Assembly: GCA_965279515.1 (NCBI GenBank)
Contig: CBDIID010000003.1
Coordinates: 2,464,001 to 2,528,000 of the forward strand
DNA: 64,000 nucleotides
Direction: 5' to 3'
From: Turneriella sp.
GTDB taxonomy: Bacteria; Spirochaetota; Leptospiria; Turneriellales; Turneriellaceae
A program made the translations under genes and the position numbers. Under the pieces are notes generated by a model that worked only from the letters and a program-made list of their open reading frames with translations, did not search any database and was not told the DNA's origin. Of the stretch, positions 19,607 to 49,568 are shown one piece after another (positions within the stretch are counted from its first letter, which is position 1; every line of letters starts with the position of its first letter).

Positions 19607-19661
19607 GCACACGATGTGCTGAGCGCCGCCGCTGGCACGGACGCCATCTTCGCGGCGGCGC
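19607..19661 (+). repeat. GGA-loop structured intergenic element, copy 1
   Basis: gcac-ACGAT-gtgc tga gcgccgccgc tggc-ACGGAC-gcca tcttc gcggcggcgc. Confidence 0.75.
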
Positions 19662-19723
19662 GAGGGCACATTCAAATCGGGCTTTACACCTTGCTCAGGC
19701 TAAAAGCCGCATTGTAAGCGGAT

Positions 19724-20860
19724 ATGATGCTCGTGGAAATATTAAGAAGAAAGATCGTTCTGCGCTTTTTGATTTCTGCGCTTTACGCAATCCCACTGGC
19801 ATTGCCGATTTCGGCAGGCGTATATACCGACGGTTCATCGGTGATGACCCTGAATGCCGGACAAGATGCTAATTTTGGCGGCAAGATGCCGGACTTACTC
19901 AATACGATCGCCGAGAAATACCAGCTCTCTGCCCTAAACGATATTACGCGGGGCAACGCGACGTCGCAATCTCTGGCAACCATGGGCGCAGGCACGGCAT
20001 ACGCCTCGGGCAATTATACTTTTATCGTGGGCGGCGGTGGGGGGCTGGGAATCAACGCTGTCAACCAGAGCCTCGGCGACGTGTTTACGAAACTCGGTGA
20101 TTTAGGCGGCGACGGCCTGCCGCGCTTTGGTGTTGGCGCACAGCTTTCGGCGATGGTGGGTATGAATCTCGGCAACCTGCGTACCCCGCGTTATCTCGGG
20201 CCCCTGGAGCTTTCGCGCATGACGGTGCTGGTGAATTTTATGAGCGCCTCTTCGAGCAGCCTGACTGGCGGATTGAACCTTTCGGCGACGGTCGCCGGCC
20301 TGCATGTACAATATCAACTTTCCCGTGCGCGCGGCTCTGCTTTTCAATACGGCGAAATTCTGCTGACGACGGGTTTTGATTATTCGCGGCTTGCAGCGAA
20401 CTACGATTCAGCCAACGGCAAGGGGTTGACTGCGGTTTCGATTGGGTCTGGTAGTGCAAGCGACCAGCAACTGACATGGCTACCCACTGGCACGATGTCG
20501 ATCACTTCAGGTTCGGGCACAGTACCCGTCGAAATTTCGACCAGCACCCGGCTGCTCTATTTCTTGTCTCTCTATGTCGGGGCCGGTGCGGATTTCAACG
20601 TCGGCAAAGCCACAACCGATATCAATCTCTCTGGCACAGTAAAAGGTAACAATGGCACTGGTGAAAATGTTGTAGGTTCAGGCTCACTCTCGGTAAGCAA
20701 GTCCGCATCACCGCAATTTGCCAGTGGCCGCGGTTTCGCAGGGGTACAGTTCAACCTCGTACCGGGGCGTACCGGTGGCGTCGTGGGAATTTTTGCACAG
20801 GCGAGCATCACCAGCCTGAATGGATTGGGCGGACAGCTCGGCGTGCGCGCCGCCTGGTAA
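19724..20860 (+). CDS. Outer membrane beta-barrel surface protein, Lsa36-like
   Basis: Signal peptide, Gly-rich amphipathic strands, terminal Trp; P..ISTS.RLLYFLSLY.GAGADF recalled from Leptospira Lsa36-family proteins. Confidence 0.6.
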   Translation: MMLVEILRRKIVLRFLISALYAIPLALPISAGVYTDGSSVMTLNAGQDANFGGKMPDLLNTIAEKYQLSALNDITRGNATSQSLATMGAGTAYASGNYTFIVGGGGGLGINAVNQSLGDVFTKLGDLGGDGLPRFGVGAQLSAMVGMNLGNLRTPRYLGPLELSRMTVLVNFMSASSSSLTGGLNLSATVAGLHVQYQLSRARGSAFQYGEILLTTGFDYSRLAANYDSANGKGLTAVSIGSGSASDQQLTWLPTGTMSITSGSGTVPVEISTSTRLLYFLSLYVGAGADFNVGKATTDINLSGTVKGNNGTGENVVGSGSLSVSKSASPQFASGRGFAGVQFNLVPGRTGGVVGIFAQASITSLNGLGGQLGVRAAW

Positions 20861-20861
20861 T

Positions 20862-21197
20862 TTATTTTCCGGCTTTTTTTGCAGCGGCTTTTGCAGGTTT
20901 AGCAGCGGGAGCTTCGACCTTGGGCGGTGTAACCACCGCAGGTTTTTGCACCTCACCGCTTTTCGGAGCTTCGTCGTCGGCGTGGATGATATTCAGATCT
21001 TTGCAGATAATATCTGAGCCCTGCGTTTTGCACTGCTCGATGCCGGTACTTTCGCTGCGGCCCGACGCTTTTGCCGAAGAATAATAGGTGCGCAGATAGC
21101 CGTTGGAGCCGTCGGAGCCGACATGCGAATTATACTTCACGGCGCTGCAACTTGCTGCCGCAAAGGTCAAAAGGGTTAAACCGAGTTTTAGCGGCAT
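20862..21197 (-). CDS. Small lipoprotein with C-x8-C motif and Pro/Ala/Lys tail
   Basis: Lipobox AAASC; CKTQGSDIIC. Confidence 0.7.
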   Translation of the reverse strand: MPLKLGLTLLTFAAASCSAVKYNSHVGSDGSNGYLRTYYSSAKASGRSESTGIEQCKTQGSDIICKDLNIIHADDEAPKSGEVQKPAVVTPPKVEAPAAKPAKAAAKKAGK

Positions 21198-21397
21198 ACA
21201 AGATCTCCTTTACTATCGGCGACGCAGATGAGTCCCAAAACCGGCCGCGACGAGAACACGCCGTTTTCCACCGCATCGACGCGGTAGATAATTTTATTGT
21301 CTTTATTGCTCAACACTTCAAAATTTGTGATTTCCAGACTGCGGCAGCCCGTGAAGAGCGCGGCTATGACCAGAATAAGGATTATGATTTTTTTCAT
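21188..21397 (-). CDS. Small lipoprotein (69 aa)
   Basis: MKK + hydrophobic core + FTGC lipobox; CVADSKGDLVC. Confidence 0.7.
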   Translation of the reverse strand: MKKIIILILVIAALFTGCRSLEITNFEVLSNKDNKIIYRVDAVENGVFSSRPVLGLICVADSKGDLVCR

Positions 21398-21699
21398 GGT
21401 TTTACATCCTTCTGAAAGTATTCAGGCGCTTGCCAGTACTGCGTGTCGATATTGAGGTTTAGCTCGCGGTCGCATTTGAGATCTTCGCCGCGCAGCTTGC
21501 AGTTGAGAATTACCGGAGTCGTGGAACTAAAAAGAATCCGTGACTGCACTTTAATCGCCTGCACATAGACGGTTCCGTCGGCACCAGGTACGGTGCGCTG
21601 GTACTGGTAGCGCGGTTTACCCGTCGCACAGTTCAGCGCCGCAAGACTCAGGACTAAAACAGCAAAACCGTAAACCTTTCGCATAGCGCCGACTCTCAT
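21394..21699 (-). CDS. Small lipoprotein
   Basis: Lipobox ALNC; CKLRGEDLKC; 4-nt overlaps with neighbours. Confidence 0.7.
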   Translation of the reverse strand: MRVGAMRKVYGFAVLVLSLAALNCATGKPRYQYQRTVPGADGTVYVQAIKVQSRILFSSTTPVILNCKLRGEDLKCDRELNLNIDTQYWQAPEYFQKDVKP

Positions 21700-22925
21700 T
21701 TCGCCCCCGCTTTGCCGAGCATTTCCACGATATCATTGCGCCCTTTGCGGCGCGCGGCTTCGATTGCCGTAAAGCCATCCCAGGTCTTGATGTTGACGTT
21801 TGCGCCAGCTGCAATCAGGTCGGCGAGAATTTCGCTGTGGCCCTCTTGTGCGGCATATAGCTGGGCGGTAAAACCGTACAGATCTTGCAGCGCACTGTTG
21901 GCCTTGCGGGCAATGAGCGCCTTCAGGGGTAATGCGCGCGCTTTGAATGCTGCCTGAATCAGAGGTGTCTTACCGCCGCCGATGCGGAAGTTCACGTCGG
22001 GCGCAACCTGGATAATCGCCACGGCAGTTGTGTCGTTGGCAAAGTTGATGGCATCCATGATATCGGCCTGATAGTCAGCGCCTGCTTTAATCAGAATCTC
22101 AGCAAGTGCGGTATGCCCCGCAGCTGCGGCAATAGCGAGCGGCGTGATATCGCCGCGGTCGCGCGCATTGACATCCGAAATCAATGCCATCTCCGAATTT
22201 TTCAGGCGGATGGCAAATTCGGCCGACGTATAATCTTTGATGCGGCTGACAATTTCCGCCGCGACCTGATTCAAGGCATCGAAGATATTGACGTCGAGGC
22301 TCGCGGTGATCTGGCTTTCGACGATAAGTTTTTTATCGGCGGGCGTAAAAACCTGTGTCGTAATGACAGCCTGTTTGCCGCCGGGAAGTGAGGTATACGA
22401 GCCGCTGATGATTACAGCTGCCTGGGTTTTTTCTCCCAGCTGGGTCAGTAGTTCGGGAGTATATTCGGTTTTCTTACCGATGACGCTGTCAGCCGCTTTT
22501 TGGGTCTGCTTTTCCGCTTTGCGTTTGAACTCAAAATTCTCGGCCATGAGCCCCTGTATCGCATCGGGCAGGCTGGCGCCGATCCAGCCATAATTTTTCG
22601 AACCGGTGTTGTTGAGGTAGTTCAGAATCGCGACACCTTCACGACTGGATTTTTTTGCCGCGAGCACAGCCTTGGGTTGCAGCAGCGCTTTCACCGCATC
22701 GGCATTCCCCGAAGCTGCGGCGAGATGCAGAGGCGTACGGCCACGCTCATCCTTCGCCAACGGATCTCCACCAGCGAGGACAGCCTGTTCGATACCTGCG
22801 GCATCGCCGGCGGTGGCGGCTTTTTTCAGGTCGGCGGTGGGGCCGGTCTCGGCAATCTTTTGTGTGCTGGAGCAACTGAGGATAAAGAGCCAAAACAATG
22901 TGGTGGGCAAGTAAATAGCGCGCAT
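21696..22925 (-). CDS. Ankyrin-repeat lipoprotein with inserted TolB-N/CsgG-like domain
   Basis: Lipobox ILSC; GRTPLHLAA, TPLAIAA, TPLIQAA repeats; central VAILNYLNNTGSKNYGWIG...IISGSY domain. Confidence 0.85.
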   Translation of the reverse strand: MRAIYLPTTLFWLFILSCSSTQKIAETGPTADLKKAATAGDAAGIEQAVLAGGDPLAKDERGRTPLHLAAASGNADAVKALLQPKAVLAAKKSSREGVAILNYLNNTGSKNYGWIGASLPDAIQGLMAENFEFKRKAEKQTQKAADSVIGKKTEYTPELLTQLGEKTQAAVIISGSYTSLPGGKQAVITTQVFTPADKKLIVESQITASLDVNIFDALNQVAAEIVSRIKDYTSAEFAIRLKNSEMALISDVNARDRGDITPLAIAAAAGHTALAEILIKAGADYQADIMDAINFANDTTAVAIIQVAPDVNFRIGGGKTPLIQAAFKARALPLKALIARKANSALQDLYGFTAQLYAAQEGHSEILADLIAAGANVNIKTWDGFTAIEAARRKGRNDIVEMLGKAGAK

Positions 22926-22990
22926 ACAGCAGTGCGGGGGTCAAAAAACACAGCGTCAAGCCGTCTCCGCGGGAAAAAAATCGCAAAATC

Positions 22991-23018
22991 TGTCACAAAC
23001 GGAAATCTCTTGTATCTA
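22991..23018 (+). promoter_or_regulatory. Putative ECF-sigma promoter (TGTCACA-n16-ATCTA)
   Basis: Sits just upstream of the DUF1304-ECF sigma operon; resembles TGTCACA...CGTC(TA) ECF promoters. Confidence 0.5.
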
Positions 23019-23026
23019 ACTTTGTA

Positions 23027-23401
23027 ATGAAAACAACAGCAAACATTCTCACCGGCTTCGTGGCCTTCATCCACTGCTACATTCTGGTGCTCGAAAGCTT
23101 TCTCTGGAAAAGTGCCTATGGCATGAAAACCTTCCAGCTCACCCCAGAACGCGCCGAACTGACAGCCGTCATGGCACAGAACCAGGGCGCGTACAACGGC
23201 GTCTTAGCCGTGGGCCTGATCTGGAGCTTCTTCGTCGCAAACCCTGAATGGAAGCGCAACATCCGCACATTCTTTTTGCTCGCCGTCTTTGCGATGGGCC
23301 TTGTCGGCGCTGCCACAGCGATGGTAAAGATTCTGTTCATCCAGTCGGTGCCGGCTCTTCTGGCGCTCATTGTGGTGAGACTGGCATACCGCAAAGCCTG
23401 A
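23027..23401 (+). CDS. DUF1304 family membrane protein
   Basis: VAFIH.YILVLE..LW, NQGAYNG, Q..PALLAL motifs. Confidence 0.9.
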   Translation: MKTTANILTGFVAFIHCYILVLESFLWKSAYGMKTFQLTPERAELTAVMAQNQGAYNGVLAVGLIWSFFVANPEWKRNIRTFFLLAVFAMGLVGAATAMVKILFIQSVPALLALIVVRLAYRKA

Positions 23402-23406
23402 ATAAC

Positions 23407-24237
23407 GTGAGTTGGATTGATACCGGCAACGACGAAGTTTTAGCCGCGGTCGGGGGTAACTCCGCCGCGCTCGAACGCATTCTGCAAGCGACGCAGGAAC
23501 CGGTATACAATCTCGCCTTAAGATTCCTCTGGCACCCGCAAGACGCGCAGGACGCGACACAGGAAATTCTCATCCGCATCATGACGAATCTTTCGGCGTT
23601 CCGCGGCGAGAGCCAGTTCGGTACCTGGGCCTACCGCATCGCGGTGAACCATTTGCTGCGCGCGAAAAAGTCGCGCGCGGAGCGGCGTGAAATTTCTTTC
23701 CGCGGCACTGCGATCGAAATGCAAAAACTCGATCCCGAACCGCTCGGCGAAAACGACGCCGACCGCATTTACGATATCAAGATCGCCTGTACGAATGGCA
23801 TCCTACTGGCGCTCAGCCGCAACTACCGCATCGCTTTTGTGCTCGGCGCTGTGATGGAAATGAAGAGCGAAACGGCGGCCGACATACTCGGTATCTCGGC
23901 GGCAAGTTTCAGGCAGCGCCTCAAGCGTGCGCGCACCGCGATGGCAGAATTTCTCGGCAGGCAATGCGGTCTTGTAAATTCTGCGGCCGCCTGCCGTTGT
24001 AGCAAGCGTGTGCGACCCGCAATGCAGCGCGGCGCAATCGAACCTTACATTGCTCTGGCCGCAAGTATGAAACGCAGCGGCGAATTTCAGACGATTGAGA
24101 AAAACCTGAGCGGCGAAATCTCAACCATCGAACGTACCGTCATGCTCTACCGACAAAATGCGGAATACCGCTCACCGGAAATCCTGAACCGCAAGGTGCG
24201 CCAGGTGCTCTCCGGAAATCTATTCGCCTCTGAATAA
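23407..24237 (+). CDS. ECF RNA polymerase sigma factor with Cys-rich C-terminal extension
   Basis: DAQDATQE, F.TWAYRIAVN (region 2); region 4 HTH; CGLVNSAAACRC; GTG start at 23407 preferred over ORF-track start. Confidence 0.9.
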   Translation: MSWIDTGNDEVLAAVGGNSAALERILQATQEPVYNLALRFLWHPQDAQDATQEILIRIMTNLSAFRGESQFGTWAYRIAVNHLLRAKKSRAERREISFRGTAIEMQKLDPEPLGENDADRIYDIKIACTNGILLALSRNYRIAFVLGAVMEMKSETAADILGISAASFRQRLKRARTAMAEFLGRQCGLVNSAAACRCSKRVRPAMQRGAIEPYIALAASMKRSGEFQTIEKNLSGEISTIERTVMLYRQNAEYRSPEILNRKVRQVLSGNLFASE

Positions 24238-24309
24238 ACCTGAACGATTGTTCATTTTTATCTTTACAAAGAGTCACCACCGGTTCCGAATGTGCCGGAG
24301 GACAAACCG

Positions 24310-25329
24310 ATGAGCGCAACACTTACCCTCAGTGAAAAAGACCGCGGCAGTAAAATTATCCAGTGGATTCGTTTTACCGACAAGCGGCTGAGGCGCAGGC
24401 ATCCCTTTCTCACGCGTTTTCAAAACCAGATCGGTCTCGCAATCACGCTAGGCTCTGCGGCGGGTATGATCGGCTTTGCGGCTCTCTACATTGTGGGATG
24501 GATTCCCGCGTGGCTGTGCATCACCGCGAATGCGGTCTTCGCCTCATTTCTGCACGAGATGGAACACGATCTCATCCATTCGCTATACTATAAAGAGAAT
24601 CTGAAGATGCAGAACTTTTTGTTCTGGATGGTGTGGCTATTCCGCGCGAACGTGGTCAATCCCTGGTTCCGGAAGGAAATCCACCTATTGCATCACCGTG
24701 TTTCAGGCAATAAAGAAGATGTCGAAGAGCGTTATATTTCGAATGGCATGCCGTTTGGTTTGAAGCGCCTCATGGTGATGCTCGACCCGATCATGGCGCT
24801 GAAATTTCAGGGGCCGCCGATCAAACGCGATGCAATTCTGCAACTGCGCAAAATCAAGGCGCCGCACAAAATTGGCCCGGTGCGCGAGATCTTCATGCTG
24901 CTCTGGTACTCATTCTTAATCTTCAGTCTCGTGCGCCTCGGCTTTTGGATTGCTGGTATGCAAATGCCTCTGCCTGCATGGGCGAATACTGCCGCAAATA
25001 TTCTCAATACGGCCGCCGTTGTTTACCTCATCCCATGCTGGCTGAGGCAAACTGCGATCCAGATTGTTTCATCCAACATGCACTACTACGGGGGCATTGA
25101 CTCGCTGTACCGGCAGACCCAGGTTCTGGATTCATGGCTGGTCTTGCCGCTGCACGTGTTCTGTTTCAATTTCGGGGCGACGCATGGTATTCACCACTTT
25201 GTCGTCAATCAGCCATTCTACCTGCGGCAATGGACGGCTCCGTACGTGCGGCCAGCGATGCGCAAGTACGGTGTGCGTTTCAACGATTTTAAGAGCATGC
25301 TGCATGCGAACCGCTGGCAAGAGGCCTGA
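24310..25329 (+). CDS. Membrane fatty acid desaturase family protein
   Basis: His boxes HEMEHDLIH, HLLHH, HGIHH. Confidence 0.9.
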   Translation: MSATLTLSEKDRGSKIIQWIRFTDKRLRRRHPFLTRFQNQIGLAITLGSAAGMIGFAALYIVGWIPAWLCITANAVFASFLHEMEHDLIHSLYYKENLKMQNFLFWMVWLFRANVVNPWFRKEIHLLHHRVSGNKEDVEERYISNGMPFGLKRLMVMLDPIMALKFQGPPIKRDAILQLRKIKAPHKIGPVREIFMLLWYSFLIFSLVRLGFWIAGMQMPLPAWANTAANILNTAAVVYLIPCWLRQTAIQIVSSNMHYYGGIDSLYRQTQVLDSWLVLPLHVFCFNFGATHGIHHFVVNQPFYLRQWTAPYVRPAMRKYGVRFNDFKSMLHANRWQEA

Positions 25330-25377
25330 TTCGCTAAAAGCTCTTTACGCTATCCGTAGCGTCGCGGGATGTCGGCC

Positions 25378-26307
25378 ATGAAGAAAAAGCTACTCATAGG
25401 CCTCGGAACAATCGCCGCGGCTTTCGCGGTTGTTTATTTCTTTTTCCCGGGCACGCTGTTCGGTGTGGTTGCGAAACTCGAACGCAACCGCGCCAACGTC
25501 ACTGTGAAGAAAATCGACGCGGGCGGCTGGCATACCCCGTACATCGAAGGTGGCCAGGGTGAGCATGTCATATTACTCCACGGTTTTGGCGGCGACAAAG
25601 ACACCTTCACCCGCTTTGCCCGGTTTTTGACGCCCAAATACCATGTCGTGAGCCCCGATCTGCCGGGCTTCGGCGAGAACGAACGCCGGCCGAGTGAGAA
25701 ATACTCCATAGCCGATCAGGCAAAACGCGTGCTGGCATTTGCTGCCGAACTCAAACTCGAAAAATTCCATCTCGTGGGTAACTCCATGGGCGGCCATCTC
25801 GCTGGTATTATCGCCGCCGATGCACCCGGCAAAGTTCTTTCGCTGACACTCATCGATAATGCCGGCATCCATGCGCCGCGGCCATCAGAGCGCGACGAGC
25901 TACTGAAGCAGGGCAAGAACGCGCTCGTCGTCGATTCCGAAGAGGATTTCGACCGGCTCATGGATTTTCTGTTCTTCAAACGGCCGTTTATTCCGAGGCC
26001 AATCAAAAAATATTTTGCCCAACGGGCGCTGGCGAGCCGCGAATTTAACCTGAAAATCTTTAAAGACCTGGGAGAAGATAAGTTCTACCTCGAAAAACGT
26101 TTCGCCGATATCAAGGCCCCCATCTTAGTGATCTGGGGCGACCACGACCGCGTGCTCGAAATCTCGAGCATCGACGTCATGAAAAAGATCAATCCCGCGA
26201 TCGAGGTCAAAATCATGAAAGACTGCGGCCACACGCCGCAGATCGAACGCCCTGAAGAAGCCGCGCAGCTGACGGAAAAATTCATGGCACAGACCCGCGC
26301 ACATTGA
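25378..26307 (+). CDS. Alpha/beta hydrolase (lipase/esterase)
   Basis: LLHGFGG, GNSMGG nucleophile, WGDHD, CGH. Confidence 0.93.
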   Translation: MKKKLLIGLGTIAAAFAVVYFFFPGTLFGVVAKLERNRANVTVKKIDAGGWHTPYIEGGQGEHVILLHGFGGDKDTFTRFARFLTPKYHVVSPDLPGFGENERRPSEKYSIADQAKRVLAFAAELKLEKFHLVGNSMGGHLAGIIAADAPGKVLSLTLIDNAGIHAPRPSERDELLKQGKNALVVDSEEDFDRLMDFLFFKRPFIPRPIKKYFAQRALASREFNLKIFKDLGEDKFYLEKRFADIKAPILVIWGDHDRVLEISSIDVMKKINPAIEVKIMKDCGHTPQIERPEEAAQLTEKFMAQTRAH

Positions 26308-28841
26308 AACCGGTAACCGTCACTTCGGCAACCCCGGTATTTTCTGCGCAGCCTGCCGCAGAGGTACTGGCACAGCTCGAGACCCGCAGTGATGGGCTGA
26401 CCAGCAGCGAGGCGACTGAACGCCTCAGCCGGTTCGGGGCAAACCGCCTCAAGCCGAAAAAAAATTCGCAGAGCCTGGCTATCCTCATCGGGCAATTCAA
26501 AAGCCCAATCATTATCATCTTATTATGCGCAACGATACTCTCATTCGTGTTGCGCAACCCCGTCGATGCGTTGATTATTCTCACCATCGTGATCGCCAGC
26601 GGCTTTATGGGCTTCTGGCAAGAGCGCGGCGCGTCGAATGCCGTCGCGAAACTGCTGGCGATGGTGCAGATCAGGGCGACAGCGCTGCGTGACGGGGCAC
26701 CGGTCGAGATTCACGTGGAAGACATTGTGCCCGGTGACGTCGTCAAACTCAATGCCGGGGATATCGTGCCCGGCGATTGCCTGCTCATTGAATCCAAAGA
26801 TATTTTCGCCGACGAGGGTACACTGACGGGCGAGACCTTTCCCGTAGAGAAATCCCCGGCGACCGTCACGGCGCAGACGCCGCTCTCGCAGCGCAGCAAT
26901 ACGCTGTGGATGGGTACACATATCGTCAGCGGCACGGGGCGCGCCGTGGTTGTACATACGGGTAAGGATACCGAGTTCGGCCGCATCTCCGAGCGGCTGC
27001 AGAGCAAGCCACCCGAAACCGATTTTGAACGCGGTATCCGCAGGTTCGGCTACCTGCTCGGTGAAGTCACGCTGATTCTCGTCGTTGTAATCTTTGCCAT
27101 CAACGTCTACTTCGAGCGGCCCGTGCTCGAATCGTTTCTGTTTTCCCTGGCGCTGGCGGTGGGGCTCACGCCGCAGCTCTTACCCGCGATTATCAGCGTC
27201 AACCTCGCGCATGGCGCAAAAAAAATGGCGGAAAAAAACGTCATCGTCAAACGGCTGTCTTCGATCGAGAATTTCGGCAGCATGAATATACTCTGCTCCG
27301 ATAAGACCGGCACACTCACGGAAGGTGTAGTTCACCTGAAAGCCGCGCTCGATACAAACGGAAGCGCCAGCGAGCGCGTCTTTCTCTACGCCTACATCAA
27401 TGCGTTTTATGAAAGCGGTTTTACGAACCCCATCGATACCGCGATCCGCAGCCATAAAACTCTCGACCTGACAGCCTACCCCAAGGTGGATGAAATTCCC
27501 TATGATTTTATTCGCAAACGCCTGAGCATCGTCGTCACCCACGAAAACAAGCGCCTGATGGCTACCAAGGGGGCATTGGCCAACATTCTGGAAGCCTGCA
27601 GCTTTGCGGAGGTTAAGGGCGGCGGCGTTGTTCCTATTGACTCTGTGCGGGAAAATATCGATCAGCAGTTCTCTGATTTCAGCGCACAGGGATTCCGCAC
27701 GCTGGGAATCGCTTTCAAGGAACTGCCCGATGAAGACGGCATCCAGAAAGACGATGAAAGCGGTATGACCTTTCTGGGTTTCCTTACATTATTCGATCCG
27801 CCGAAAGAAAATATCGTCGAGACCATTGCGGACCTCAGGGGTCTCGGCGTTTCGCTGAAAGTCATTACGGGGGATAACCGTCTCGTGGCGCAAAGCCTCT
27901 GCGCGAAGATGGGCCTCTCGCATGTAAATCTCGTCACGGGTTCAGACTTGCGTGACATGGGCGACGACGCTCTCGTGAACCGCGTCAGGGACACCGATAT
28001 CTTCGCGGAAATCGAACCCAACCAAAAAGAGCGGATTATCCTCGCGATTCGTAAGGGCGGTCATGTCGTGGGTTACATCGGCGACGGCATCAACGACGCT
28101 GCGGCGCTGCATGCCGCCGATGTCGGCATCTCTGTCGATACCGCGGCCGACGTCGCTAAAGACGCGGCCGACATCGTACTGCTCGAAAAAACCCTCGATG
28201 TTCTGATCGCCGGCGTGCGCGAAGGGCGCACCGTGTTTGCGAATACGCTGAAGTATGTCTTCATGGCAACCAGCGCCAACTTCGGCAATATGTTTAGCAT
28301 GGCAGGTCTTTCGTTTTTTATACCGTTTCTGCCGCTTTTGCCGAAACAGATTCTGCTCACGAACCTGCTCACAGACTTTCCCGAAATGACGATCGCCACT
28401 GACCGTGTCGATGAAGAGATGATCAACCACCCGCGCCGCTGGGACATCAAGGCAATCCGCAAGTTTATGATCACCTTTGGCCTCGTCAGTTCCATCTTTG
28501 ATTACCTGACATTTGGCCTGCTGCTGCTTTTTCTGCGTGCCAGCGAAATTGAATTCAGGACCGGATGGTTTGTCGAATCCGTTGTTTCGGCTTCACTGAT
28601 TGTGCTCATCATACGCACACCAAAGCCGTTCTTCAAAAGCCCGCCGGGCAAATACCTGCTGCTTGCAACGCTCGCCACGGTCGCAGTGACAGTAACGCTA
28701 CCCTTTACACCGATCGCGCCCTTTTTCGGCTTTGCTCCCCTCAGCCTCAAAACATATGCGTATCTCTTTTTAATAGTCATTGCGTATTTCGCCGTCGCTG
28801 AAGTCGTGAAGACGATTTTCTACCGCCGGGTACGGCTTTAA
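26304..28841 (+). CDS. mgtA: Magnesium-translocating P-type ATPase
   Basis: DKTGTLT, LAVGLTP, TGDN, GDGIND, SANFGNMFS. Confidence 0.92.
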   Translation: MKPVTVTSATPVFSAQPAAEVLAQLETRSDGLTSSEATERLSRFGANRLKPKKNSQSLAILIGQFKSPIIIILLCATILSFVLRNPVDALIILTIVIASGFMGFWQERGASNAVAKLLAMVQIRATALRDGAPVEIHVEDIVPGDVVKLNAGDIVPGDCLLIESKDIFADEGTLTGETFPVEKSPATVTAQTPLSQRSNTLWMGTHIVSGTGRAVVVHTGKDTEFGRISERLQSKPPETDFERGIRRFGYLLGEVTLILVVVIFAINVYFERPVLESFLFSLALAVGLTPQLLPAIISVNLAHGAKKMAEKNVIVKRLSSIENFGSMNILCSDKTGTLTEGVVHLKAALDTNGSASERVFLYAYINAFYESGFTNPIDTAIRSHKTLDLTAYPKVDEIPYDFIRKRLSIVVTHENKRLMATKGALANILEACSFAEVKGGGVVPIDSVRENIDQQFSDFSAQGFRTLGIAFKELPDEDGIQKDDESGMTFLGFLTLFDPPKENIVETIADLRGLGVSLKVITGDNRLVAQSLCAKMGLSHVNLVTGSDLRDMGDDALVNRVRDTDIFAEIEPNQKERIILAIRKGGHVVGYIGDGINDAAALHAADVGISVDTAADVAKDAADIVLLEKTLDVLIAGVREGRTVFANTLKYVFMATSANFGNMFSMAGLSFFIPFLPLLPKQILLTNLLTDFPEMTIATDRVDEEMINHPRRWDIKAIRKFMITFGLVSSIFDYLTFGLLLLFLRASEIEFRTGWFVESVVSASLIVLIIRTPKPFFKSPPGKYLLLATLATVAVTVTLPFTPIAPFFGFAPLSLKTYAYLFLIVIAYFAVAEVVKTIFYRRVRL

Positions 28842-39694: not shown

Positions 39695-39711
39695 TCTTTT
39701 TAGCTAATTTG

Positions 39712-40219: not shown

Positions 40220-40648
40220 TCAGGCGACACCCGGCGGCAGTACCCGGCACGACCCCTTACTCACCGTCTCACCCCGCTGGTTGCTCCACAGGATATTCAT
40301 TTCAACGACCTTCATGCGTTCGATTTTTTTGGACACCGTGACGGCAACCGTAACGGTATCGCCGAAATATACCGCATTCCGGAACTTCTGCGTCACCTCA
40401 AGGGCGACTGTTCCGAGGCCCGGCAATTTCATACCGAGCACATTGGCTAAGAGCGATGCCGCAAGGCCACCGTGCGCAATACGCGTTTTAAAGGGCGATG
40501 TCTTCGCGTACTCTTCATTCACATGCAGGGGGTTAAAATCACCGCTGATACCGGCGAATAAATAGACATCGGTTTCTGTAATGGTCTTGGTGAAGCTGGC
40601 GGTTTCGCCGATCTGGATCTGTTCAAAAGTTTTGCCTTTCTCGTACAT
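40220..40648 (-). CDS. MaoC family (R)-enoyl-CoA hydratase
   Basis: FAGISGDFNPLH, IAHG, LPG.G. Confidence 0.92.
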   Translation of the reverse strand: MYEKGKTFEQIQIGETASFTKTITETDVYLFAGISGDFNPLHVNEEYAKTSPFKTRIAHGGLAASLLANVLGMKLPGLGTVALEVTQKFRNAVYFGDTVTVAVTVSKKIERMKVVEMNILWSNQRGETVSKGSCRVLPPGVA

Positions 40649-40695
40649 AGGGTTTAGTCGGATTTAAAACACCGGGCGTCGATGACTAACCAAGC

Positions 40696-41895: not shown

Positions 41896-41943
41896 GTTCG
41901 TTGTATTTTTTCTGCGAGAGTCAGCGAAAAGAAAAATGGTATG

Positions 41944-42645: not shown

Positions 42646-43440
42646 TTACATCACCGCGGGCTTGAGGCCCTTGCTGTCCGCGAGTTGCAGATAGGCTTTT
42701 TCGACCACCGCACGGATGCCGATCAGCTTTTCTTTTTCGGTCAGCTTGCTCGTCGCGTTTGCGGGATGCAGCTCATGATCGGGCAAGATCGGGTCAAGTA
42801 CCTGGATAGCAATGCGATGCGGAAACAACAGGACATTCGAATGCATGGGCCGTGTTTCCTGCGTACCATACAGAACAATCGGAATAATCGGAAAGCCGCC
42901 TTTTTCGGCGACCTGGAATGCCCCCGCCTTGAACGGCAGAATCTTGCGCGCATCTTTACTACGCGTACCTTCGGGATAAATCAGCACCCGGTTGTTCTCA
43001 CGCACCTTAGCCTCGACGACCTCTAGCGAGCGGGCTGCCTGGCGCGGGCTTGAGCGGTTCACCGAGATGTATCCGATCTTGCGCATGGCGAGACCGATAA
43101 ATGGAATTTTGAAAACTTCTTCCTTGGAAAGAAATAGAAAGTCCAAAGGATAGAATCCTAACCCCGCCAAAATGTCAAAGAGGGATTGATGGTTGCTGAT
43201 AACAATGCCGGGTTCGTTTCGCGCCTTTTCCGCTCCGTAAACGTAGACCGGACAAAATGTAATGCGAATACCAAGCCAGCCCCAGAACTCTGCAAAGTAG
43301 CGCAATTTGCGGCTATGCTTTTTGGGCCAAACCGGGGCAAGCAGGATCACGAGGGTGGCGATGAGAATAGTGAATGGAATGAAGGTCGCCAGAAACCAGA
43401 CATAAAAAAGAAAGCCAACCGGAATCAACGCGTACCGCAT
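42646..43440 (-). CDS. plsC: 1-acyl-sn-glycerol-3-phosphate acyltransferase
   Basis: NHQSLFD, YPEGTRS, FKAGAF. Confidence 0.9.
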   Translation of the reverse strand: MRYALIPVGFLFYVWFLATFIPFTILIATLVILLAPVWPKKHSRKLRYFAEFWGWLGIRITFCPVYVYGAEKARNEPGIVISNHQSLFDILAGLGFYPLDFLFLSKEEVFKIPFIGLAMRKIGYISVNRSSPRQAARSLEVVEAKVRENNRVLIYPEGTRSKDARKILPFKAGAFQVAEKGGFPIIPIVLYGTQETRPMHSNVLLFPHRIAIQVLDPILPDHELHPANATSKLTEKEKLIGIRAVVEKAYLQLADSKGLKPAVM

Positions 43441-43554
43441 GGGGGGCCGTCTCGTTTTTGAACAGAACGTCAATGGTTTTTGGTTAACGAACAATGACGC
43501 AAAACCGGACATTTATTGATTGACCGCGAGCTAACGCAGGAAACTTAGCTTTAG

Positions 43555-44289
43555 ATGCACCGCGGAATACTCGAAACCGTATTCTGTGCCGGCGTTCATG
43601 GGAGCGCCGACAACTTCAGGCAGTGGGCGACGATGTACCGCCAACTCGCTGCATCACCCTTGCCCCCCAATCTCAGCGAATTTCAGGCCGCGCTCGATGA
43701 GCAGGTCGGTGATGCGGCAAAGCAGACGAGCGTAGATCTTTCTGACGATTTTATGCAGAAAGATATCATGCGTCTTTTCGATGCGGGCGCAACCGAAGTG
43801 ATATTGCCGTACAGCGAACTGCGGTGGCGTAACCATAACGAATGGGTTTTTCACACGGATAACTCAGAGAGTTTTTTTGTCGCGAACGATATGAAACTTT
43901 CACCGCTGCAATATATCCGCTCGCGCGTGCAGAATTTTTGCGACGACAAGGGTGTTCTGAACGCTCACCGCGACGAAATTGTCATCTCAGTCACCGAAGC
44001 GGCAGAGAACGCGATTAAGTACTCTAATGTGTTACCTGTTTTTATCCACCACGGCATCGAAAAAGAAGAGTATTTTATCCGCGCCATCAACTCAGTCAAC
44101 GACCTCAACCTTAAAGACGAAATTTCACGCGGCAAATTTTCTGAGGATGTCTCGCTGATGCGCGGAGTTCTGGTGATGTCAAAGCTGCTCGACTTTCTCG
44201 ACATCGTGCGCGACGTCGAGAAAAAACGCGTGGAGTTTATCGGCCGAAAGAAGATTTCGCTGAAACCTTCAAAACTAGTATCGGCCTGA
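43555..44289 (+). CDS. RsbW-like HATPase domain protein (degenerate)
   Basis: ISVTEAAENAIKYS N-box; MRGVLVM G-box-like; no DxG motif. Confidence 0.65.
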   Translation: MHRGILETVFCAGVHGSADNFRQWATMYRQLAASPLPPNLSEFQAALDEQVGDAAKQTSVDLSDDFMQKDIMRLFDAGATEVILPYSELRWRNHNEWVFHTDNSESFFVANDMKLSPLQYIRSRVQNFCDDKGVLNAHRDEIVISVTEAAENAIKYSNVLPVFIHHGIEKEEYFIRAINSVNDLNLKDEISRGKFSEDVSLMRGVLVMSKLLDFLDIVRDVEKKRVEFIGRKKISLKPSKLVSA

Positions 44290-44318
44290 ACCGCTGCCGG
44301 CTAACAGATTTTCCGAAA

Positions 44319-45257
44319 TCAATACTTACCGGCTGAGGTGCTCAATGCCCCGATCGGGTGCCAGATCGTTTTATATTCCTGAAAGTCCGTAATGTAGTCG
44401 AGTTTTTCACCCGCTTCACTGTAGAGATCCGCCGCAGTTTTCCAGGACTTGATGCGCACGCGCTTCAGATTTTCTGTTGCCGCTGTTTCGGCGGTTTTAC
44501 GTGTCTCGTCGGAAATCACGGCAAGATCGAGCGCGTTGACATCCATGTGCTGCGCGAGGCCGGGTAACAGTTCTTTATGATAACCCGTGAGCACATTCAC
44601 GACACCGCCGGGTAAGTCAGAGGTTGCGAGCACTTCAGCAAGGCTCAGGACAACCGCTGGATTTTCTTCGGACACAAGCGCGATCACCGAATTACCACCC
44701 GCAAGAATCGGCGCGATCTGGGAAATAAAACCCAGCACCGGAGAAAAATTAGGGCAGAGCGCCACAACAACACCCATGGGTTCCGGAATAGTGAAGTTAA
44801 AATACGAACCCGAAACCGGGTTATGGTTACCCGAAAGCTGTTGGAATTTATCGCACCAGCCGGAATACCAGACAAGGCGATCGATGGAGGTCTCGACCTC
44901 ACGCGCGGCGTCAGAGGGCTTCGCACCGGAGACAAAAGAAATCTCAGCGCTAATCTCGCCGGCGCGCGCTTCGAGCATCTCGGCCATGCGGTAGAGAATC
45001 TGGCCGCGGTTGAAAGCGGTTTTCGAGGCCCAGCTATTGGCACCCTTGCGGGCGGCCTCCACAGCGTTGCGGGCATCTTTGCGGCTGCCCTGCTGGATAT
45101 TCGCGTAGAACTTTCCCGATTCTTTTGCACTCAGGGGAAACGAACGCCCCGATTCAGAGCGCGGAAACTCGCCGCCAATATAGAGTTTTTTAGTTTTGGC
45201 GACCGCAAGGCGCACCGACTTGGTGTCCGCGGCTTTTTCTTCGACGGCTTCTGGCAT
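44319..45257 (-). CDS. Short aldehyde dehydrogenase family protein (NAD-binding domain only)
   Basis: KLYIGGEFPRSESGR, EPMGVV, DLPGGVVNVLTG, EYKTIWHPIG; no catalytic Cys domain. Confidence 0.85.
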   Translation of the reverse strand: MPEAVEEKAADTKSVRLAVAKTKKLYIGGEFPRSESGRSFPLSAKESGKFYANIQQGSRKDARNAVEAARKGANSWASKTAFNRGQILYRMAEMLEARAGEISAEISFVSGAKPSDAAREVETSIDRLVWYSGWCDKFQQLSGNHNPVSGSYFNFTIPEPMGVVVALCPNFSPVLGFISQIAPILAGGNSVIALVSEENPAVVLSLAEVLATSDLPGGVVNVLTGYHKELLPGLAQHMDVNALDLAVISDETRKTAETAATENLKRVRIKSWKTAADLYSEAGEKLDYITDFQEYKTIWHPIGALSTSAGKY

Positions 45258-45291
45258 GCTTTAAGTTTCGGCGGGCCGCAGCCGTGTCAAA

Positions 45292-45870
45292 CTATTTGCA
45301 AAGCTCGGCATTCCCCATAGGGTCCGCTTCGTTGCCGAACCAGGCGACAGCATAGCCGCCCTTGATGCCAACGCCAAAGGCATTCCAGGCCCTGCTCCAC
45401 ATGCCTTGGTTCACCATAACCGCATTATGTCCCGAAGACCCCTGCCAGACGCGCAGCGCCGTTGCCGAGTCGATGCCGCCACTGCCGCCGGCCGAAATCT
45501 CAAAGCCGCTTCCCTTATAGTCACTAAGTTCCTGCGGCTTTTTCCACATGCACTGCGCCTTCGCATGATCGCTCGTATAACAGCACGAAGACCACGGGCC
45601 GGCATTCGACCAGCTGTGCATATTGCACATACCAGAGGCAGGGCGATTATCTGCAAGGTCAGCCGCATGCGTCTTTGCCACATAGCTGAGCGACTTTGTC
45701 GCTTGCAGTGTGGGCAATCCTTTGCCGCGGCGGTAGGTATTTATGGCCTCGACAAGTTTCATCTCTTCAGCCGTCAGGCAGACCTTGGCCGCAGGTCTTG
45801 CAAGCGGCGCTTCGCTGCGCAAGCCCAGAGAGGTGACGGCAATCAGTACCGCTAAAATAGTTTTTTTCAT
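45292..45870 (-). CDS. CAP (SCP) domain secreted protein
   Basis: INTYRR, A..HA.DL, HSW, E, WQGSSGHN. Confidence 0.88.
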   Translation of the reverse strand: MKKTILAVLIAVTSLGLRSEAPLARPAAKVCLTAEEMKLVEAINTYRRGKGLPTLQATKSLSYVAKTHAADLADNRPASGMCNMHSWSNAGPWSSCCYTSDHAKAQCMWKKPQELSDYKGSGFEISAGGSGGIDSATALRVWQGSSGHNAVMVNQGMWSRAWNAFGVGIKGGYAVAWFGNEADPMGNAELCK

Positions 45871-47255
45871 CAGTAGTTTACGCTCACCTTTTCGAGAACC
45901 CCGAATGCCTCGAAAACCGTTTCTGACAGCGTCGGGTGCGGCATAACTGCATGCATAAAGTCATCCGCCAAGAGCTCTGACCCCATCGCGAGGGAAACCT
46001 GGCCGATCAGTTCGGCGGCATTTTCACCGACGATCTGCGCGCCCAGGATTTCACCGGTCTTTTTGTCAGTAAAGACACGCGTAAAAGCATTCTGCTCGGC
46101 CGCTGCCAGCGCCATGCCCGAGGCAATCCACGGAAATTCGCCGACGGTAAAATCACGCTTCGCTTCGGTCAGCTGTTTTTCGCTGAGCCCGATCGTCGCC
46201 ACCTGCGGGGATGTATAGATGCAGCCGGGAATCTCGCCCACAGCTGCGGGCTTTTTACCCGCAAGGCTTTCGGCGACAAAGATGCCCTGGTGTGCGGCAC
46301 GGTGCGCGAGCAGTTTTCCGGGCGTCACATCGCCGATCGCAAAAATATTCTTCTCTTTGGTTTGCAGCTGTGCATCGACATGGATGAACTTTTTTTCGTC
46401 GAGAATTCCAAAAGCGTCGATGCCCAGATCTTCGGTATTCGGCTGCACGCCGATCGCGACAAGCATTGCCGCCGACTGGACCTTTTCTTCTTTGCCATCC
46501 GCGGTCTTGAGCTTAGTTTCCACACCCTGGGCATTCTCCGCATTCGCGGTGATCTGCGCGCCTTCAAAGATCTGCATCCCCCTTTGTTCGAGGGCTTTTC
46601 TGAGGTGGCTCGCGACCTTGAGGTCGTCGTTCGGCAGAATGTGCGGCGCCATTTCAATGAGCGTCACCTTGCTGCCTAAGCACTGGTAAAAATCGGCGAA
46701 CTCGAGGCCGATGGCGCCACCGCCGATCACGGTGAGGCTCGCGGGCAACTCTTTCGCTACAAGCGCATCGCGGTACTGCCAGACTTTTTTCGAAAAGGGT
46801 AATTGCGGCAACGCCCGTGCCCGGGCACCGGTGGCAATGCAGGCATTTTTGAAATTCACCTGCGTCTCACCCGCCGCGGATTTTACCTTCAGCTGTGTTT
46901 TAGAAGTAAAGGCGGCATTCCCTTCGAAGAGTGTAACACCGTATTTTTTAAAGAGCGACTTGACGCCGGTCTGCAGGCGCGTCGCCACCTGGCGCGAACG
47001 GTCGATTATCGCGGGCAGGTCGGCGGCGATTTTACCCTCAACCGTGATGCCGAGTTTTCCGGCCTGTACCTTGTGCAAAAGATGCGCAGAGGTCAAGAGC
47101 GCCTTCGTCGGTATACATCCCCAGTTGAGACAGACACCGCCCGCGTTTTCGCGTTCGACCACAGCGGTCTTAAGCCCTAGCTGCGCCGCGCGTATCGCCG
47201 AGCTGTAACCGCCGGGCCCCGCACCGATCACAACATAGTCAAAGCTATCTGCCAT
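45870..47255 (-). CDS. lpdA: Dihydrolipoyl dehydrogenase
   Basis: GAGPGG, GGVCLNWGCIPTK, GGGAIG, HPTLSE. Confidence 0.95.
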   Translation of the reverse strand: MADSFDYVVIGAGPGGYSSAIRAAQLGLKTAVVERENAGGVCLNWGCIPTKALLTSAHLLHKVQAGKLGITVEGKIAADLPAIIDRSRQVATRLQTGVKSLFKKYGVTLFEGNAAFTSKTQLKVKSAAGETQVNFKNACIATGARARALPQLPFSKKVWQYRDALVAKELPASLTVIGGGAIGLEFADFYQCLGSKVTLIEMAPHILPNDDLKVASHLRKALEQRGMQIFEGAQITANAENAQGVETKLKTADGKEEKVQSAAMLVAIGVQPNTEDLGIDAFGILDEKKFIHVDAQLQTKEKNIFAIGDVTPGKLLAHRAAHQGIFVAESLAGKKPAAVGEIPGCIYTSPQVATIGLSEKQLTEAKRDFTVGEFPWIASGMALAAAEQNAFTRVFTDKKTGEILGAQIVGENAAELIGQVSLAMGSELLADDFMHAVMPHPTLSETVFEAFGVLEKVSVNY

Positions 47256-47321
47256 TACACATGGACGTACGGGCATCAGTGGCGGCAAGAATGTTCGGAT
47301 GCGGGAAAACAGCTTTTTAGT

Positions 47322-47352
47322 TTGACTTTTTGATGCTATGATGCTGTGATGC
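47322..47352 (+). promoter_or_regulatory. vapBC promoter with three TGATGC direct repeats
   Basis: TTGACT at 47322; TGATGC at 47331, 47339, 47347 (8-nt period). Confidence 0.6.
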
Positions 47353-47356
47353 GCGC

Positions 47357-47578
47357 ATGCGGACAACGCTGCACATCGACGACGACATCTACGCTTCGGT
47401 GAAAACTCTCGCTGAAACGAACGGTGTTCCGCCAGGCACTCTCATTAGTCAGTTGCTGCGCAAGGTTTTGTCGCAGACACCAATTGGCAGCGAAAATAGC
47501 CTGCCCGTATTTAAAGTAAAATCGAATGCACGTATTATACCCGGCAATCGGGCAAATAAATTACTTTCAGAAGAATAA
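47357..47578 (+). CDS. VapB-type RHH antitoxin
   Basis: MRTTLHIDDD start; 1-nt overlap with PIN toxin gene. Confidence 0.85.
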   Translation: MRTTLHIDDDIYASVKTLAETNGVPPGTLISQLLRKVLSQTPIGSENSLPVFKVKSNARIIPGNRANKLLSEE

Positions 47579-47982
47579 TGGCATTACTTGACGTCAATGT
47601 GCTCCTGGCCCTCGCATGGCCAAACCATCAATTCCACAATGCCGCAGCAAAATGGTTCTTAAAAAATAAAGCAAAAAAATGGAGCACCTGCGCCCTGACA
47701 GAACTGGCCTTTATCCGTCTCAGTTCGAACCCTGCTTTCACGGAAGAATTCGTCAACCCGGCAACGGCAGCGGCGCTCCTTGAAAAAATGAAAGACAAGA
47801 ACCACGTTTTTTTGGATAAAGAGCGGTCGCCTGCAAAAATAACCTGGGACAAAATCCATTCCCATAAGACGGTAACGGATTTTTATCTCTTGCATCTCGC
47901 TGTAACCCATCGCGTAAAACTTGTGACGTTCGACGCGGGAATCGCGGCGATCAATAACTCGCACACCTTGTTGTTGGCATGA
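47578..47982 (+). CDS. vapC: VapC PIN-domain toxin
   Basis: LLDVNVLLAL.WP.H, TE, TD.YLL.LA, LVTFD. Confidence 0.9.
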   Translation: MALLDVNVLLALAWPNHQFHNAAAKWFLKNKAKKWSTCALTELAFIRLSSNPAFTEEFVNPATAAALLEKMKDKNHVFLDKERSPAKITWDKIHSHKTVTDFYLLHLAVTHRVKLVTFDAGIAAINNSHTLLLA

Positions 47983-48524
47983 CTTTTATCATGTGGATCA
48001 TCGAGCTCGACAAACAAATCTTCGAATACCTGACCCTCTACGCCAACCCACCCTGGCTATCGGCCTGCGCCGAGCGCATCGGCAATCTCTCTACCTACAC
48101 AATACCCGCGCTCATCTTCTGCGTCCTCTACTACTGGCTCAACAGCCCGCGCTTCCTGCGTTTTCTTCTTTTCGTAATCTGCCTGTTAGTGCTCAGTGAA
48201 GGCGCAGCGTACCTGCTGAAAAATCTTATCGCCCGCCCCCGGCCGGCAGTCGACTGGCTGATCTATGTTGATCCCAAAGCATTAGGATTTCCCTCGGCGC
48301 ATGCGGTGAACTCGATGGCGCTGGCGGCTTTCCTGTCGCGTTGGTTTGAGAAATCGATCTTGTGGTATTTACCGATACCCCTCATCATCGGCGCCTCGCG
48401 CGTGCTGGCAAACTACCACTATCCGCTCGACGTTATAGGCGGATGGATCATCGGTTTCACAGTCTTCTGGATCTACTGGAGGCTGACCGACCTTTCATGG
48501 GCGGCGCACCTTAAAAAAATGTAG
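47979..48524 (+). CDS. PAP2 family phosphatase
   Basis: K...ARPRP, FPSAH, SR....HYPLDV. Confidence 0.92.
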   Translation: MTFIMWIIELDKQIFEYLTLYANPPWLSACAERIGNLSTYTIPALIFCVLYYWLNSPRFLRFLLFVICLLVLSEGAAYLLKNLIARPRPAVDWLIYVDPKALGFPSAHAVNSMALAAFLSRWFEKSILWYLPIPLIIGASRVLANYHYPLDVIGGWIIGFTVFWIYWRLTDLSWAAHLKKM

Positions 48525-48541
48525 TGTTGTGCTTTACACCA

Positions 48542-48554
48542 TGTGCGCCGCACA
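48542..48554. promoter_or_regulatory. PhaR-box-like palindrome TGTGC-gcc-GCACA
   Basis: Perfect 5-bp palindrome upstream of a phasin-like gene. Confidence 0.5.
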
Positions 48555-48604
48555 AAATCTGCACTCAGGTACGTTGCTGCGCAAGAGCAATAGGATTAAC
48601 CAAA

Positions 48605-48657
48605 GGAAGCGGTACAGAGCGCATCCGTGCGCACCGCTTCCCTGATACCTCGTGTAC
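48605..48657 (-). repeat. GGA-loop structured intergenic element, copy 2
   Basis: minus strand: gtac-ACGAG-gtat cag ggaagcggt gcgc-ACGGAT-gcgc tctgt accgcttcc. Confidence 0.75.
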
Positions 48658-48671
48658 CAAAGGAGCTTAAC

Positions 48672-48992
48672 ATGGAACAAAATGTAAATAAAGTCGTCAG
48701 CTTCGGCATCGGTGCTTATGAGTCTGCCCGCGCAGGCGCTGAAACACTGCTGAAAAACCTCGAAACAGAAATCAACGCGCTCATCTCACAAGGTGAAAGC
48801 GTTAAAAGCGAAAACGCCGTAAAAGTGCGTACAGCCGTAACAGATGCTTCAAAACAAGTTTCTACCCTCGTTGAGCAGGCAAAAGCTCAATACACAGACC
48901 TCAGCGCAAAAGCGCAAAAGGCATTCTCTGACCTGCAAGCTAAGGCGAGCGAACTCGCTGCAAAATTGCCTGTCGGAAAACAAGCAGCTTAA
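48672..48992 (+). CDS. Phasin-like helical protein
   Basis: AAGGAG SD; FGIGA...LISQGE pattern of PhaF/PhaI-like phasins; Ala/Lys-rich amphipathic helices. Confidence 0.65.
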   Translation: MEQNVNKVVSFGIGAYESARAGAETLLKNLETEINALISQGESVKSENAVKVRTAVTDASKQVSTLVEQAKAQYTDLSAKAQKAFSDLQAKASELAAKLPVGKQAA

Positions 48993-49014
48993 GTCTTAAC
49001 GACTTGATCTGGTG

Positions 49015-49045
49015 GAGGCCCTTCCGCAAGGAGGGGCTTTTTTTT
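49015..49045 (+). terminator. Rho-independent terminator
   Basis: gaggcccttcc-gcaa-ggaggggc followed by a T-run. Confidence 0.85.
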
Positions 49046-49505
49046 AGGTTAAACCAATAATCGCGTTACCCGAACAGCCTTCCCAGGTGAACGGAATGAC
49101 GAGCGTAGGCTCAGCCAGCAAGAACTTGAACTCTTCAGGCACTCCGACAAAAACGCTCGGCACTGAAATATCAAAACCGCTGCCGAAATGCACGCGCGCA
49201 TTACCGGCAATCGTATTGGCCATTTCGCCAATCATCGGGATAATATCATCTTCAGCGGGGGTCTGTGTCTCGAGCACAATCGTCACCAGCTTCTCGACAA
49301 GTTTTTTTTCGCAGGTGATAACCAGTCCGCCCTTGTGGCTGCCGGTGATACCGATGTGACCCGTATAATCAAAGAGCGGCTGCCGCGTCGCTTTCATATC
49401 AAGATTATACGGAACACCAAACTCGGGCTTCACCGCTTTGATGCTGAGAAAATACCGCTCGATACATTCGAGCAGCCCCTGAATGTCTTCGGTTTTGATT
49501 TTCAT
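49044..49505 (-). CDS. cheX: Chemotaxis phosphatase CheX
   Basis: GEMANTIAGNA (E-x-x-N), ISVPS. Confidence 0.9.
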   Translation of the reverse strand: MKIKTEDIQGLLECIERYFLSIKAVKPEFGVPYNLDMKATRQPLFDYTGHIGITGSHKGGLVITCEKKLVEKLVTIVLETQTPAEDDIIPMIGEMANTIAGNARVHFGSGFDISVPSVFVGVPEEFKFLLAEPTLVIPFTWEGCSGNAIIGLT

Positions 49506-49514
49506 AAGATTTCA

Positions 49515-49568
49515 GTCCGCGACAAAGAGGGCATCCATGCCCGTCGCAGACTAAGCGCCTCCATGCGC
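49515..49568 (-). repeat. GGA-loop structured intergenic element, copy 3
   Basis: minus strand: gcgc-ATGGAG-gcgc tta gtctgcgac gggc-ATGGAT-gccc tcttt gtcgcggac. Confidence 0.75.

Follow-up and report, generated by a model that had tools for sequence, protein, structure and literature searches.

Since 2010, short repeats with two CsrA-type loops have been recorded in several phyla, but it is not established what they do or how they spread. Bacillaceae-1 (Rfam RF01690, reverse strand) and TwoAYGGAY (RF01731) each carry two hairpins with loops of this type, for which CsrA binding is proposed and not validated in the available part of PMC4333381. TwoAYGGAY is described in the available part of a 2026 preprint (bioRxiv 10.64898/2026.09.22.753630) as multi-copy, with extreme copy-number variation, a mobility that is suspected but, like its link to regulation, unresolved, and 1,693 of 16,086 matches inside coding sequences (CDS). 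The Desulfotalea-1 motif, which has no model in Rfam 15, has 229 representatives in Proteobacteria and no Rfam number in the table of Weinberg et al. (2010, PMC2864571, available part). The repeat described here is a 57-nt folded unit, present in three copies in a 64,000-nt stretch of Turneriella sp. DNA (contig CBDIID010000003.1, positions 2,464,001 to 2,528,000, forward strand; hereafter the window). A reading of the letters of the window (the original prediction) had proposed it as a structure-conserved, CsrA-binding element family. The twin CsrA-loop architecture itself is already in print; the flank-free monomer, the empty sites, the stems overlapping target DNA and the in-frame protein insertion are new. 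The family is neither a REP/RAYT family nor a sponge gene.

Read by eye on its reverse strand from the alignment rows of PMC2864571, Desulfotalea-1 consists of a 4-bp ANGGAN hairpin, 3 nt, an 8–9-nt arm, a second 4-bp ANGGAN hairpin, a bulge of about 4 nt and the return arm. In these rows it shares with the 57-nt unit a loop-to-loop distance of 25–26 nt and many copies per genome. It differs in having fixed flanks (judged by eye), stems largely fixed within a genus and an interrupted long stem, whereas the 57-nt unit showed no fixed flanks, variable stems, head-to-tail arrays and in-frame inserts. In TwoAYGGAY the basal stem is common to both hairpins, the extensions are long and the doublets divergent, whereas the unit described here is a bare 57-mer with direct tandem arrays, empty sites and junction duplications. 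The units have two AYGGAY-type loop hairpins as in TwoAYGGAY, and no common basal stem around both. The TwoAYGGAY model reached its gathering threshold (43 bits) in 0 of 21 genomes and gave no match in the Turneriella genome at E ≤ 0.1 (up to 81 candidates per genome). Bacillaceae-1 did not reach 35 bits; its best score was 22.5 bits in the Turneriella genome, on the reverse strand of a unit. No Rfam family matched the window at the gathering score, and an E-value search of two array loci gave chance matches only, one of them a 16-nt piece of RsmV. Novelty is nevertheless lower than the original prediction assumed, because Desulfotalea-1, Bacillaceae-1 and TwoAYGGAY have the same core. A literature search, excluding Additional file 1 of PMC2864571 and the preprint supplement, returned no description of this spirochaete family.

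The unit is built of a 4-bp hairpin (A), 3 nt of linker, a 9-bp arm, a second 4-bp hairpin (B), about 5 nt of bulge and the returning 9-bp arm. Including the closing pair, the loop sequences are CANGGANG or CAGGANG, and the loop types in the family are ANGGAN, AGGAN or ACGAN. The C-A(N)GGAN-G loops and the loop spacing of 25–27 nt remained constant while the stems covaried. In the seed, which was chosen for pairing, 97.1% was paired, with double changes at 15 of 17 pairs; 59 distinct units from relatives, in an alignment fitted to the model, gave 95.5% paired cells and double changes at 14 of 17 pairs. G-U pairs (50) outnumbered A-C mismatches (20) in 97 units, which indicates that the GGA strand is the folding strand. 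The left arms were highly diverse (87 distinct among 105 units), and the nearest-neighbour identity of dispersed units had a median of only 0.70 and a maximum of 0.89. Contrary to the expectation that BLAST would miss the family, some siblings were caught at about 80% identity. No conserved flanks were present, the sequence around the units being host sequence. A subfamily (G000:C3:908461, 2971783 and 3546103, where G000 is the Turneriella genome) showed an outer-pair mismatch in hairpin B and a 2–3-nt bulge.

The repeat is a real, genus-wide family. A covariance model built from 22 units gave 94 matches at E ≤ 0.01 in the Turneriella genome (4.9 Mb in 3 contigs) and 87 at E ≤ 0.001, at 79 loci, which bears out the dispersed, structure-conserved family predicted from three copies. 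All 13 congeners carried 32–85 matches each, with up to 150 candidates scored per genome, and 17 other genomes of the family and order 0–2 each. Under stricter filters, 7 of 150 genomes sampled across the phylum had 1–6 matches and 18 sister-family genomes had none. A pattern scan with one genome per species gave 76 matches in 72 stretches; all three stems were present in 32 of 37 spirochaete matches and in 0 of 39 others. In the Turneriella genome, a strict descriptor found 20 matches at the 5-nt bulge against 0–6 at seven other bulge lengths. When the choice was made on loops only, with pairing not required, 28 pairs of CANGGANG occurred at 26 nt against 0–3 at seven other spacings, and 24 of these 28 pairs had all three stems. 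Hairpins with ANGGAN loops exceeded eight control loops by 2.4- to 2.9-fold, the excess being made up of C-G-closed ones (231 of 332). Shuffled sequence also spoke for the family, with 66 two-hairpin units in the genome against 0 in each of three Markov-3 shuffles.

The repeat is very probably a mobile unit. An empty allele was found in a relative for 11 of 20 Turneriella loci tested (8 at −57 nt, one at −54, one at −60, one at −65/−68); two of the other nine had no comparator, and seven were shared, replaced or poorly aligned. In the reciprocal test, a syntenic Turneriella site existed for 27 of the 51 clusters taken from relatives, and the difference was exactly 57 nt in six, 114 nt in one and 60 nt in two. 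RecF-like and RNB-domain genes showed six empty alleles each among relatives; because the empty state is common to several relatives in conserved proteins, these cases were polarised as insertions. Junction identity over 65 solo units was 4.2 of 11 positions, against 3.39 ± 0.17 in 5000 permutations (maximum 4.06). The target duplications were imperfect and of variable length, about 2–16 nt, and the duplicated stretch lies inside the element, where it extends from the last part of the 3′ arm across the 3-nt linker and hairpin A's first strand. Native codons already supply the junction over about 13 nt in a RibD-like gene, about 16 nt in another gene and two bases in a third. Of 16 usable filled/empty pairs, 13 had a join point overlapping positions −4 to −2. 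Head-to-tail arrays with a period of 55–60 nt and alternating loop spacings of 26 and 31 nt were found in many genomes, and a monomer of a perfect array, folded as a circle, gave a rod with one loop at each end. Empty sites, junction duplications, arrays and in-frame insertions had not been seen in the original prediction.

In the window, the covariance model found exactly the three copies already noted and nothing further. Their coordinates, layout and folding on the strands listed below were reproduced, as was the orientation, with units 1 and 3 sense and unit 2 antisense. The fold z values of units 1, 2 and 3 were −3.2, −3.2 and −4.5 on these strands and −1.8, −3.0 and −4.5 on the opposite strand. 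The features are as follows.

19602..19611, plus strand: perfect 10-nt direct repeat, left copy; it overlaps unit 1 at its start
19607..19661, plus strand: unit 1, 58 bits, 62 nt upstream of the open reading frame (ORF) at 19724 and sense to it
19607-19619, plus strand: hairpin A of unit 1, loop ACGAT without GGA, followed by the linker
19623-19632 and 19652-19661, plus strand: 10-nt arms of unit 1
19633-19646, plus strand: hairpin B of unit 1, loop ACGGAC, followed by the bulge at 19647-19651
19661..19670, plus strand: right copy of the 10-nt repeat, offset 59 nt from the left copy
48599..48607, plus strand: one copy of a perfect 9-nt direct repeat, supplying the last part of the 3′ arm in unit 2
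48605..48657, minus strand: unit 2, 62 bits, loops ACGAG and ACGGAT, antisense, in the leader of the phasin-like gene
48656..48664, plus strand: second copy of the 9-nt repeat, at a distance of 57 nt, overlapping the 5′ strand of hairpin A
48672..48992, plus strand: phasin-like gene (weak Pfam match to PF05597, E 3e-4, under the cut-off)
49044..49505, minus strand: downstream cheX gene
49515..49568, minus strand: unit 3, 70 bits, loops ATGGAG and ATGGAT, sense, between the two cheX genes
49570..50016, minus strand: upstream cheX gene

Unit 2 was absent in the relative G001, where the site is exactly 57 nt shorter and holds one copy of the 9-nt repeat. In other relatives the same spot held a different unit (G011) or, in several, decayed remnants. 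The repeat copy at 48656..48664 overlaps the Shine-Dalgarno sequence (48660-48665) of the phasin-like gene. Unit 3 starts 1 nt past the upstream cheX stop and ends 9 nt ahead of the next start. It was missing in G001, G003, G006 and G008 (sites 65–68 nt shorter), and in relatives lacking it the first cheX stop overlaps the next cheX start. For unit 1, none of five relatives offered a usable orthologous site. The segment 49044-50455 of the window holds a response regulator followed by the two tandem cheX paralogues, and this order is conserved in congeners. Among Turneriella intergenic units antisense to the upstream-facing gene, 11 of 18 lay within 25 nt of its start codon, and the junction of such units often coincided with the start codon or ribosome site read in complement; window 48656-48674 is an example.

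Within predicted genes lay 44 of the 79 loci, 29 sense and 15 antisense; the gene calls were home-made and these counts are therefore approximate. Pfam domains were found in 9 of 11 host proteins checked, and the host genes include those for RNase P protein, a sirtuin, and RecF-like, RNB, RibD-like, MBOAT and class III cyclase proteins. The in-gene units formed in-frame inserts of roughly 19 codons, and inserts in protein loops survive because 57 nt equals 19 codons. In the class III cyclases, one loop bears units in several genomes, up to five in tandem. Rickettsia palindromic elements are likewise palindromic repeats inserted in-frame in unrelated genes, with nearly half of the copies in ORFs, according to the available part of PMC10969869. 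These elements are about 150 bp long and encode a conserved peptide in that account, whereas the present unit has 57 bp, a variable peptide, several frames, both strands and CsrA-type loops. Miniature inverted-repeat transposable elements of the DDE type have conserved terminal inverted repeats, which are absent here, the arms being internal and variable; target duplication and empty alleles are the features in common. At G000:C3:896002, 2702442 and 4279498, a unit starts no more than 5 nt from the 3′ end of a tRNA (Ser, Leu and Thr).

The same settings bear on a host use of the units, in which they would be retained either as operators for CsrA or as a CsrA sponge spread over the genome, the lineage controlling CsrA through FliW and lacking CsrB/C, with mobility secondary. 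The sense excess in genes (29 vs 15), the proximity of 8 of the 20 sense intergenic units to a stop (6 nt at most), and an array of three units that lies after a stop codon and before a terminator-like hairpin agree with such a use. So do a fliW-like gene that adjoins csrA (read by eye) and the lack of csrB/csrC in Leptospira reported in the available part of PMC8668096. However, most sites were lineage-specific, the host genes are unrelated housekeeping genes, antisense copies are numerous, and no inspected array is a stand-alone gene with an evident promoter of its own. Host use is therefore doubtful as an explanation. A sponge gene of the CsrB/RsmZ type was tried as a candidate and rejected, since 44 of 79 loci lie in CDS, the largest intergenic array starts at a stop codon and no Rfam match was obtained. 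The CsrB, CsrC, RsmY and RsmZ sponges show GGA loops on short stems (PMC4333381). They are single, independently transcribed genes with many sites, whereas the 57-nt units are dispersed two-site elements inside or antisense to other transcripts.

The E. coli CsrA consensus is RUACARGGAUGU, and in Leptospira CsrA binds GGA hexaloops in the flaB leaders in a GGA-dependent manner (PMC8668096, available part). One CsrA dimer spans paired sites 10–55 nt apart (PMC6028588, available part), and the loop spacing of the units (25–27 nt) falls within this one-dimer range. The units combine GGA-bearing loops on short hairpins, paired sites at a suitable distance and csrA in the host, which was found in 14 of 14 genus genomes. 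The gene is not sufficient for units, because relatives with almost no units also carry csrA. In all 5 of the flaB orthologues seen, a CsrA-type hairpin lies over the ribosome site, the Shine-Dalgarno sequence (G000:C3:3984955). A second hairpin in the flaB leader, 26 nt upstream, was present in only 2 of 5 (G000 and G001), and the flaB twin hairpin was for this reason rejected as a native model of the spacing. A weak antisense unit lies about 150 nt upstream of the flaB leader hairpin (G000:C3:3984737-3984800). Judged from the motif, the closing C-G pair, the spacing and the presence of csrA, sense copies are probably able to bind CsrA. Such binding would most likely serve the element or be a side effect, and not a site-specific host regulation. 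The predicted CsrA loop motif was confirmed in part: unit 3 has GGA in both loops, whereas the first loops of units 1 and 2 (ACGAT and ACGAG) lack it, so these two units have one canonical CsrA loop each and not two.

We lean towards a mechanism in which the 57-nt folded repeat spreads as a non-autonomous mobile element whose loops are predicted to bind CsrA in sense transcripts. A single-stranded copy of one unit would fold and, with its ends joined, form a dumbbell with a loop at either end. Opening would occur close to the terminal bases of the 3′ arm, at the foot of the long stem, and a trans-acting enzyme would join the opened copy to a chromosomal site loosely resembling the junction. 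The duplicated target would enter the 3′ arm and hairpin A, and the stems would consequently drift with each host site. Copies would stay mobile only where the partner strands still pair, and this selection would account for fully paired stems of unrelated sequence; pairing may be maintained through template-switch repair or because mobility is selected for.

Several points weigh against this mechanism. Exact junction runs were mostly short, 3 nt or less in 45 of 65 solo units and at least 6 nt in 10. Three of the 16 join points fell outside −4 to −2, three further pairs were dropped as misaligned and one gave no result; the join points are blurred because the relatives are only about 70–85% identical. 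Recent copying is not supported, as no dispersed unit has a near-identical parent, and some sites are shared or decayed in relatives, so deletion between repeats can account for empty alleles in single cases. In the contigs of four runs, compared with the window stretch and one array, neither a circle nor an informative excision joint was seen. GGA was missing from at least one loop in 23 of 66 units (both loops 43, one loop 21, none 2), and both GGA were kept at similar rates in antisense (18 of 27) and sense (25 of 39) units. No mobiliser was identified among Y1 transposases, reverse transcriptases and IS110: the RVT_1 domain occurred in only 6 of 14 genus genomes and the IS110 domain in 3 of 14, G000 not included, and among the Y1 matches listed no unit at E<0.01 lay beside any of 25 loci. 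Inspection by eye of the gene neighbours of about 45 loci and 10 arrays revealed nothing transposase-like.

The Y1 result also concerns the suggestion of the original prediction that the units may be REP-like, with a RAYT (TnpA-REP) as the candidate mover, which was not supported on this point. Y1 domains do occur in 12 of 14 genus genomes, and the units are short, palindromic, dispersed and at times tandem. REP/REPIN elements are marked by a fixed terminal tetranucleotide and inverted doublets. The units have no such tetranucleotide, form direct and not inverted repeats, show target duplications and do not flank Y1 genes, which makes movement by RAYT extremely unlikely. REP/REPIN membership was accordingly rejected on the direct head-to-tail arrays, the variable ends and the absence of flanking of a Y1 HUH transposase. 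The single Y1 transposase gene of the Turneriella genome is flanked by a different short palindrome of its own (L002, 1455-1475 and 1880-1900), and the two form a candidate RAYT/REP pair unrelated to the 57-nt family.

Copying through RNA by a reverse transcriptase, for instance that of a diversity-generating retroelement (DGR) or a group II intron, with priming at loose matches, is another possible route, and we consider it very unlikely. The G-U bias and the three units beside tRNA 3′ ends would fit it, as would the units of G047, a genome of another spirochaete family, which lie behind a DGR-like template repeat and target gene end. On the other hand, 8 of 14 genus genomes (some more than 97% complete) gave no RVT_1 match, nor did G047, no unit at E<0.01 adjoined any of 11 reverse transcriptase loci, and unit length is fixed, with no 5′ truncation. 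The G047 units have the same architecture and occupy the same position behind the AAC-rich repeat and the gene end, at L383 (near 354) and L387 (near 708), both on the minus strand. The Turneriella genome has a single reverse transcriptase, a 512-aa protein (L187, 775-2313) of defence-type appearance, and the congener G012 (L190) has an apparent DGR cassette with accessory gene, template repeat and reverse transcriptase.

The loop counts are also relevant for a reading in which the loops are a recognition mark on single-stranded DNA for a mobilising protein, CsrA being uninvolved and the likeness to its sites incidental or ancestral. Units in both orientations (15 of 44 in-gene loci antisense), common GGA-less ACGAN loops and loops no better conserved in sense copies are in line with such a mark. 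Its probability is nonetheless low, since the invariant C-G closing pair, the hexaloop ANGGAN and the pentaloop AGGAN all fit CsrA sites, and a like hairpin covers the flaB Shine-Dalgarno sequence. A lagging-strand bias was also absent, with 37 of 79 loci on the leading strand. An unrelated repeat with a 26-nt twin loop in a csrA-bearing Verrucomicrobia bin (one genome) points the same way. In at least 20 stretches of this bin (G031, L110-L166) the repeat is conserved in sequence and carries two CANGGANG loops at a distance of 26 nt.

A bolder version of the preferred mechanism, mobility with CsrA-type loops, is that the unit is a minimal self-targeting element with a guide segment, both loops being held by a CsrA dimer or a CsrA-recruited host enzyme. 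The guide would be the 3′ strand of hairpin A, the linker and the left arm, as the reverse complement of the junction. It would pair with the target, and every insertion would rewrite the stems, retarget the element and add 19 residues. We regard this version as improbable; if true, TwoAYGGAY, Bacillaceae-1 and Desulfotalea-1 would be larger members of one unrecognised CsrA-dependent mobile class.

Among the twin CsrA-loop repeats, the 57-nt family represents the bare core, and its filled and empty alleles define the unit and the join point. Together with the in-frame inserts in enzymes, this makes the question of mobility directly testable with a 57-mer. For the organism, which belongs to a lineage with no known Csr small RNAs, the family supplies new protein loops as well as candidate CsrA sites scattered through the genome.

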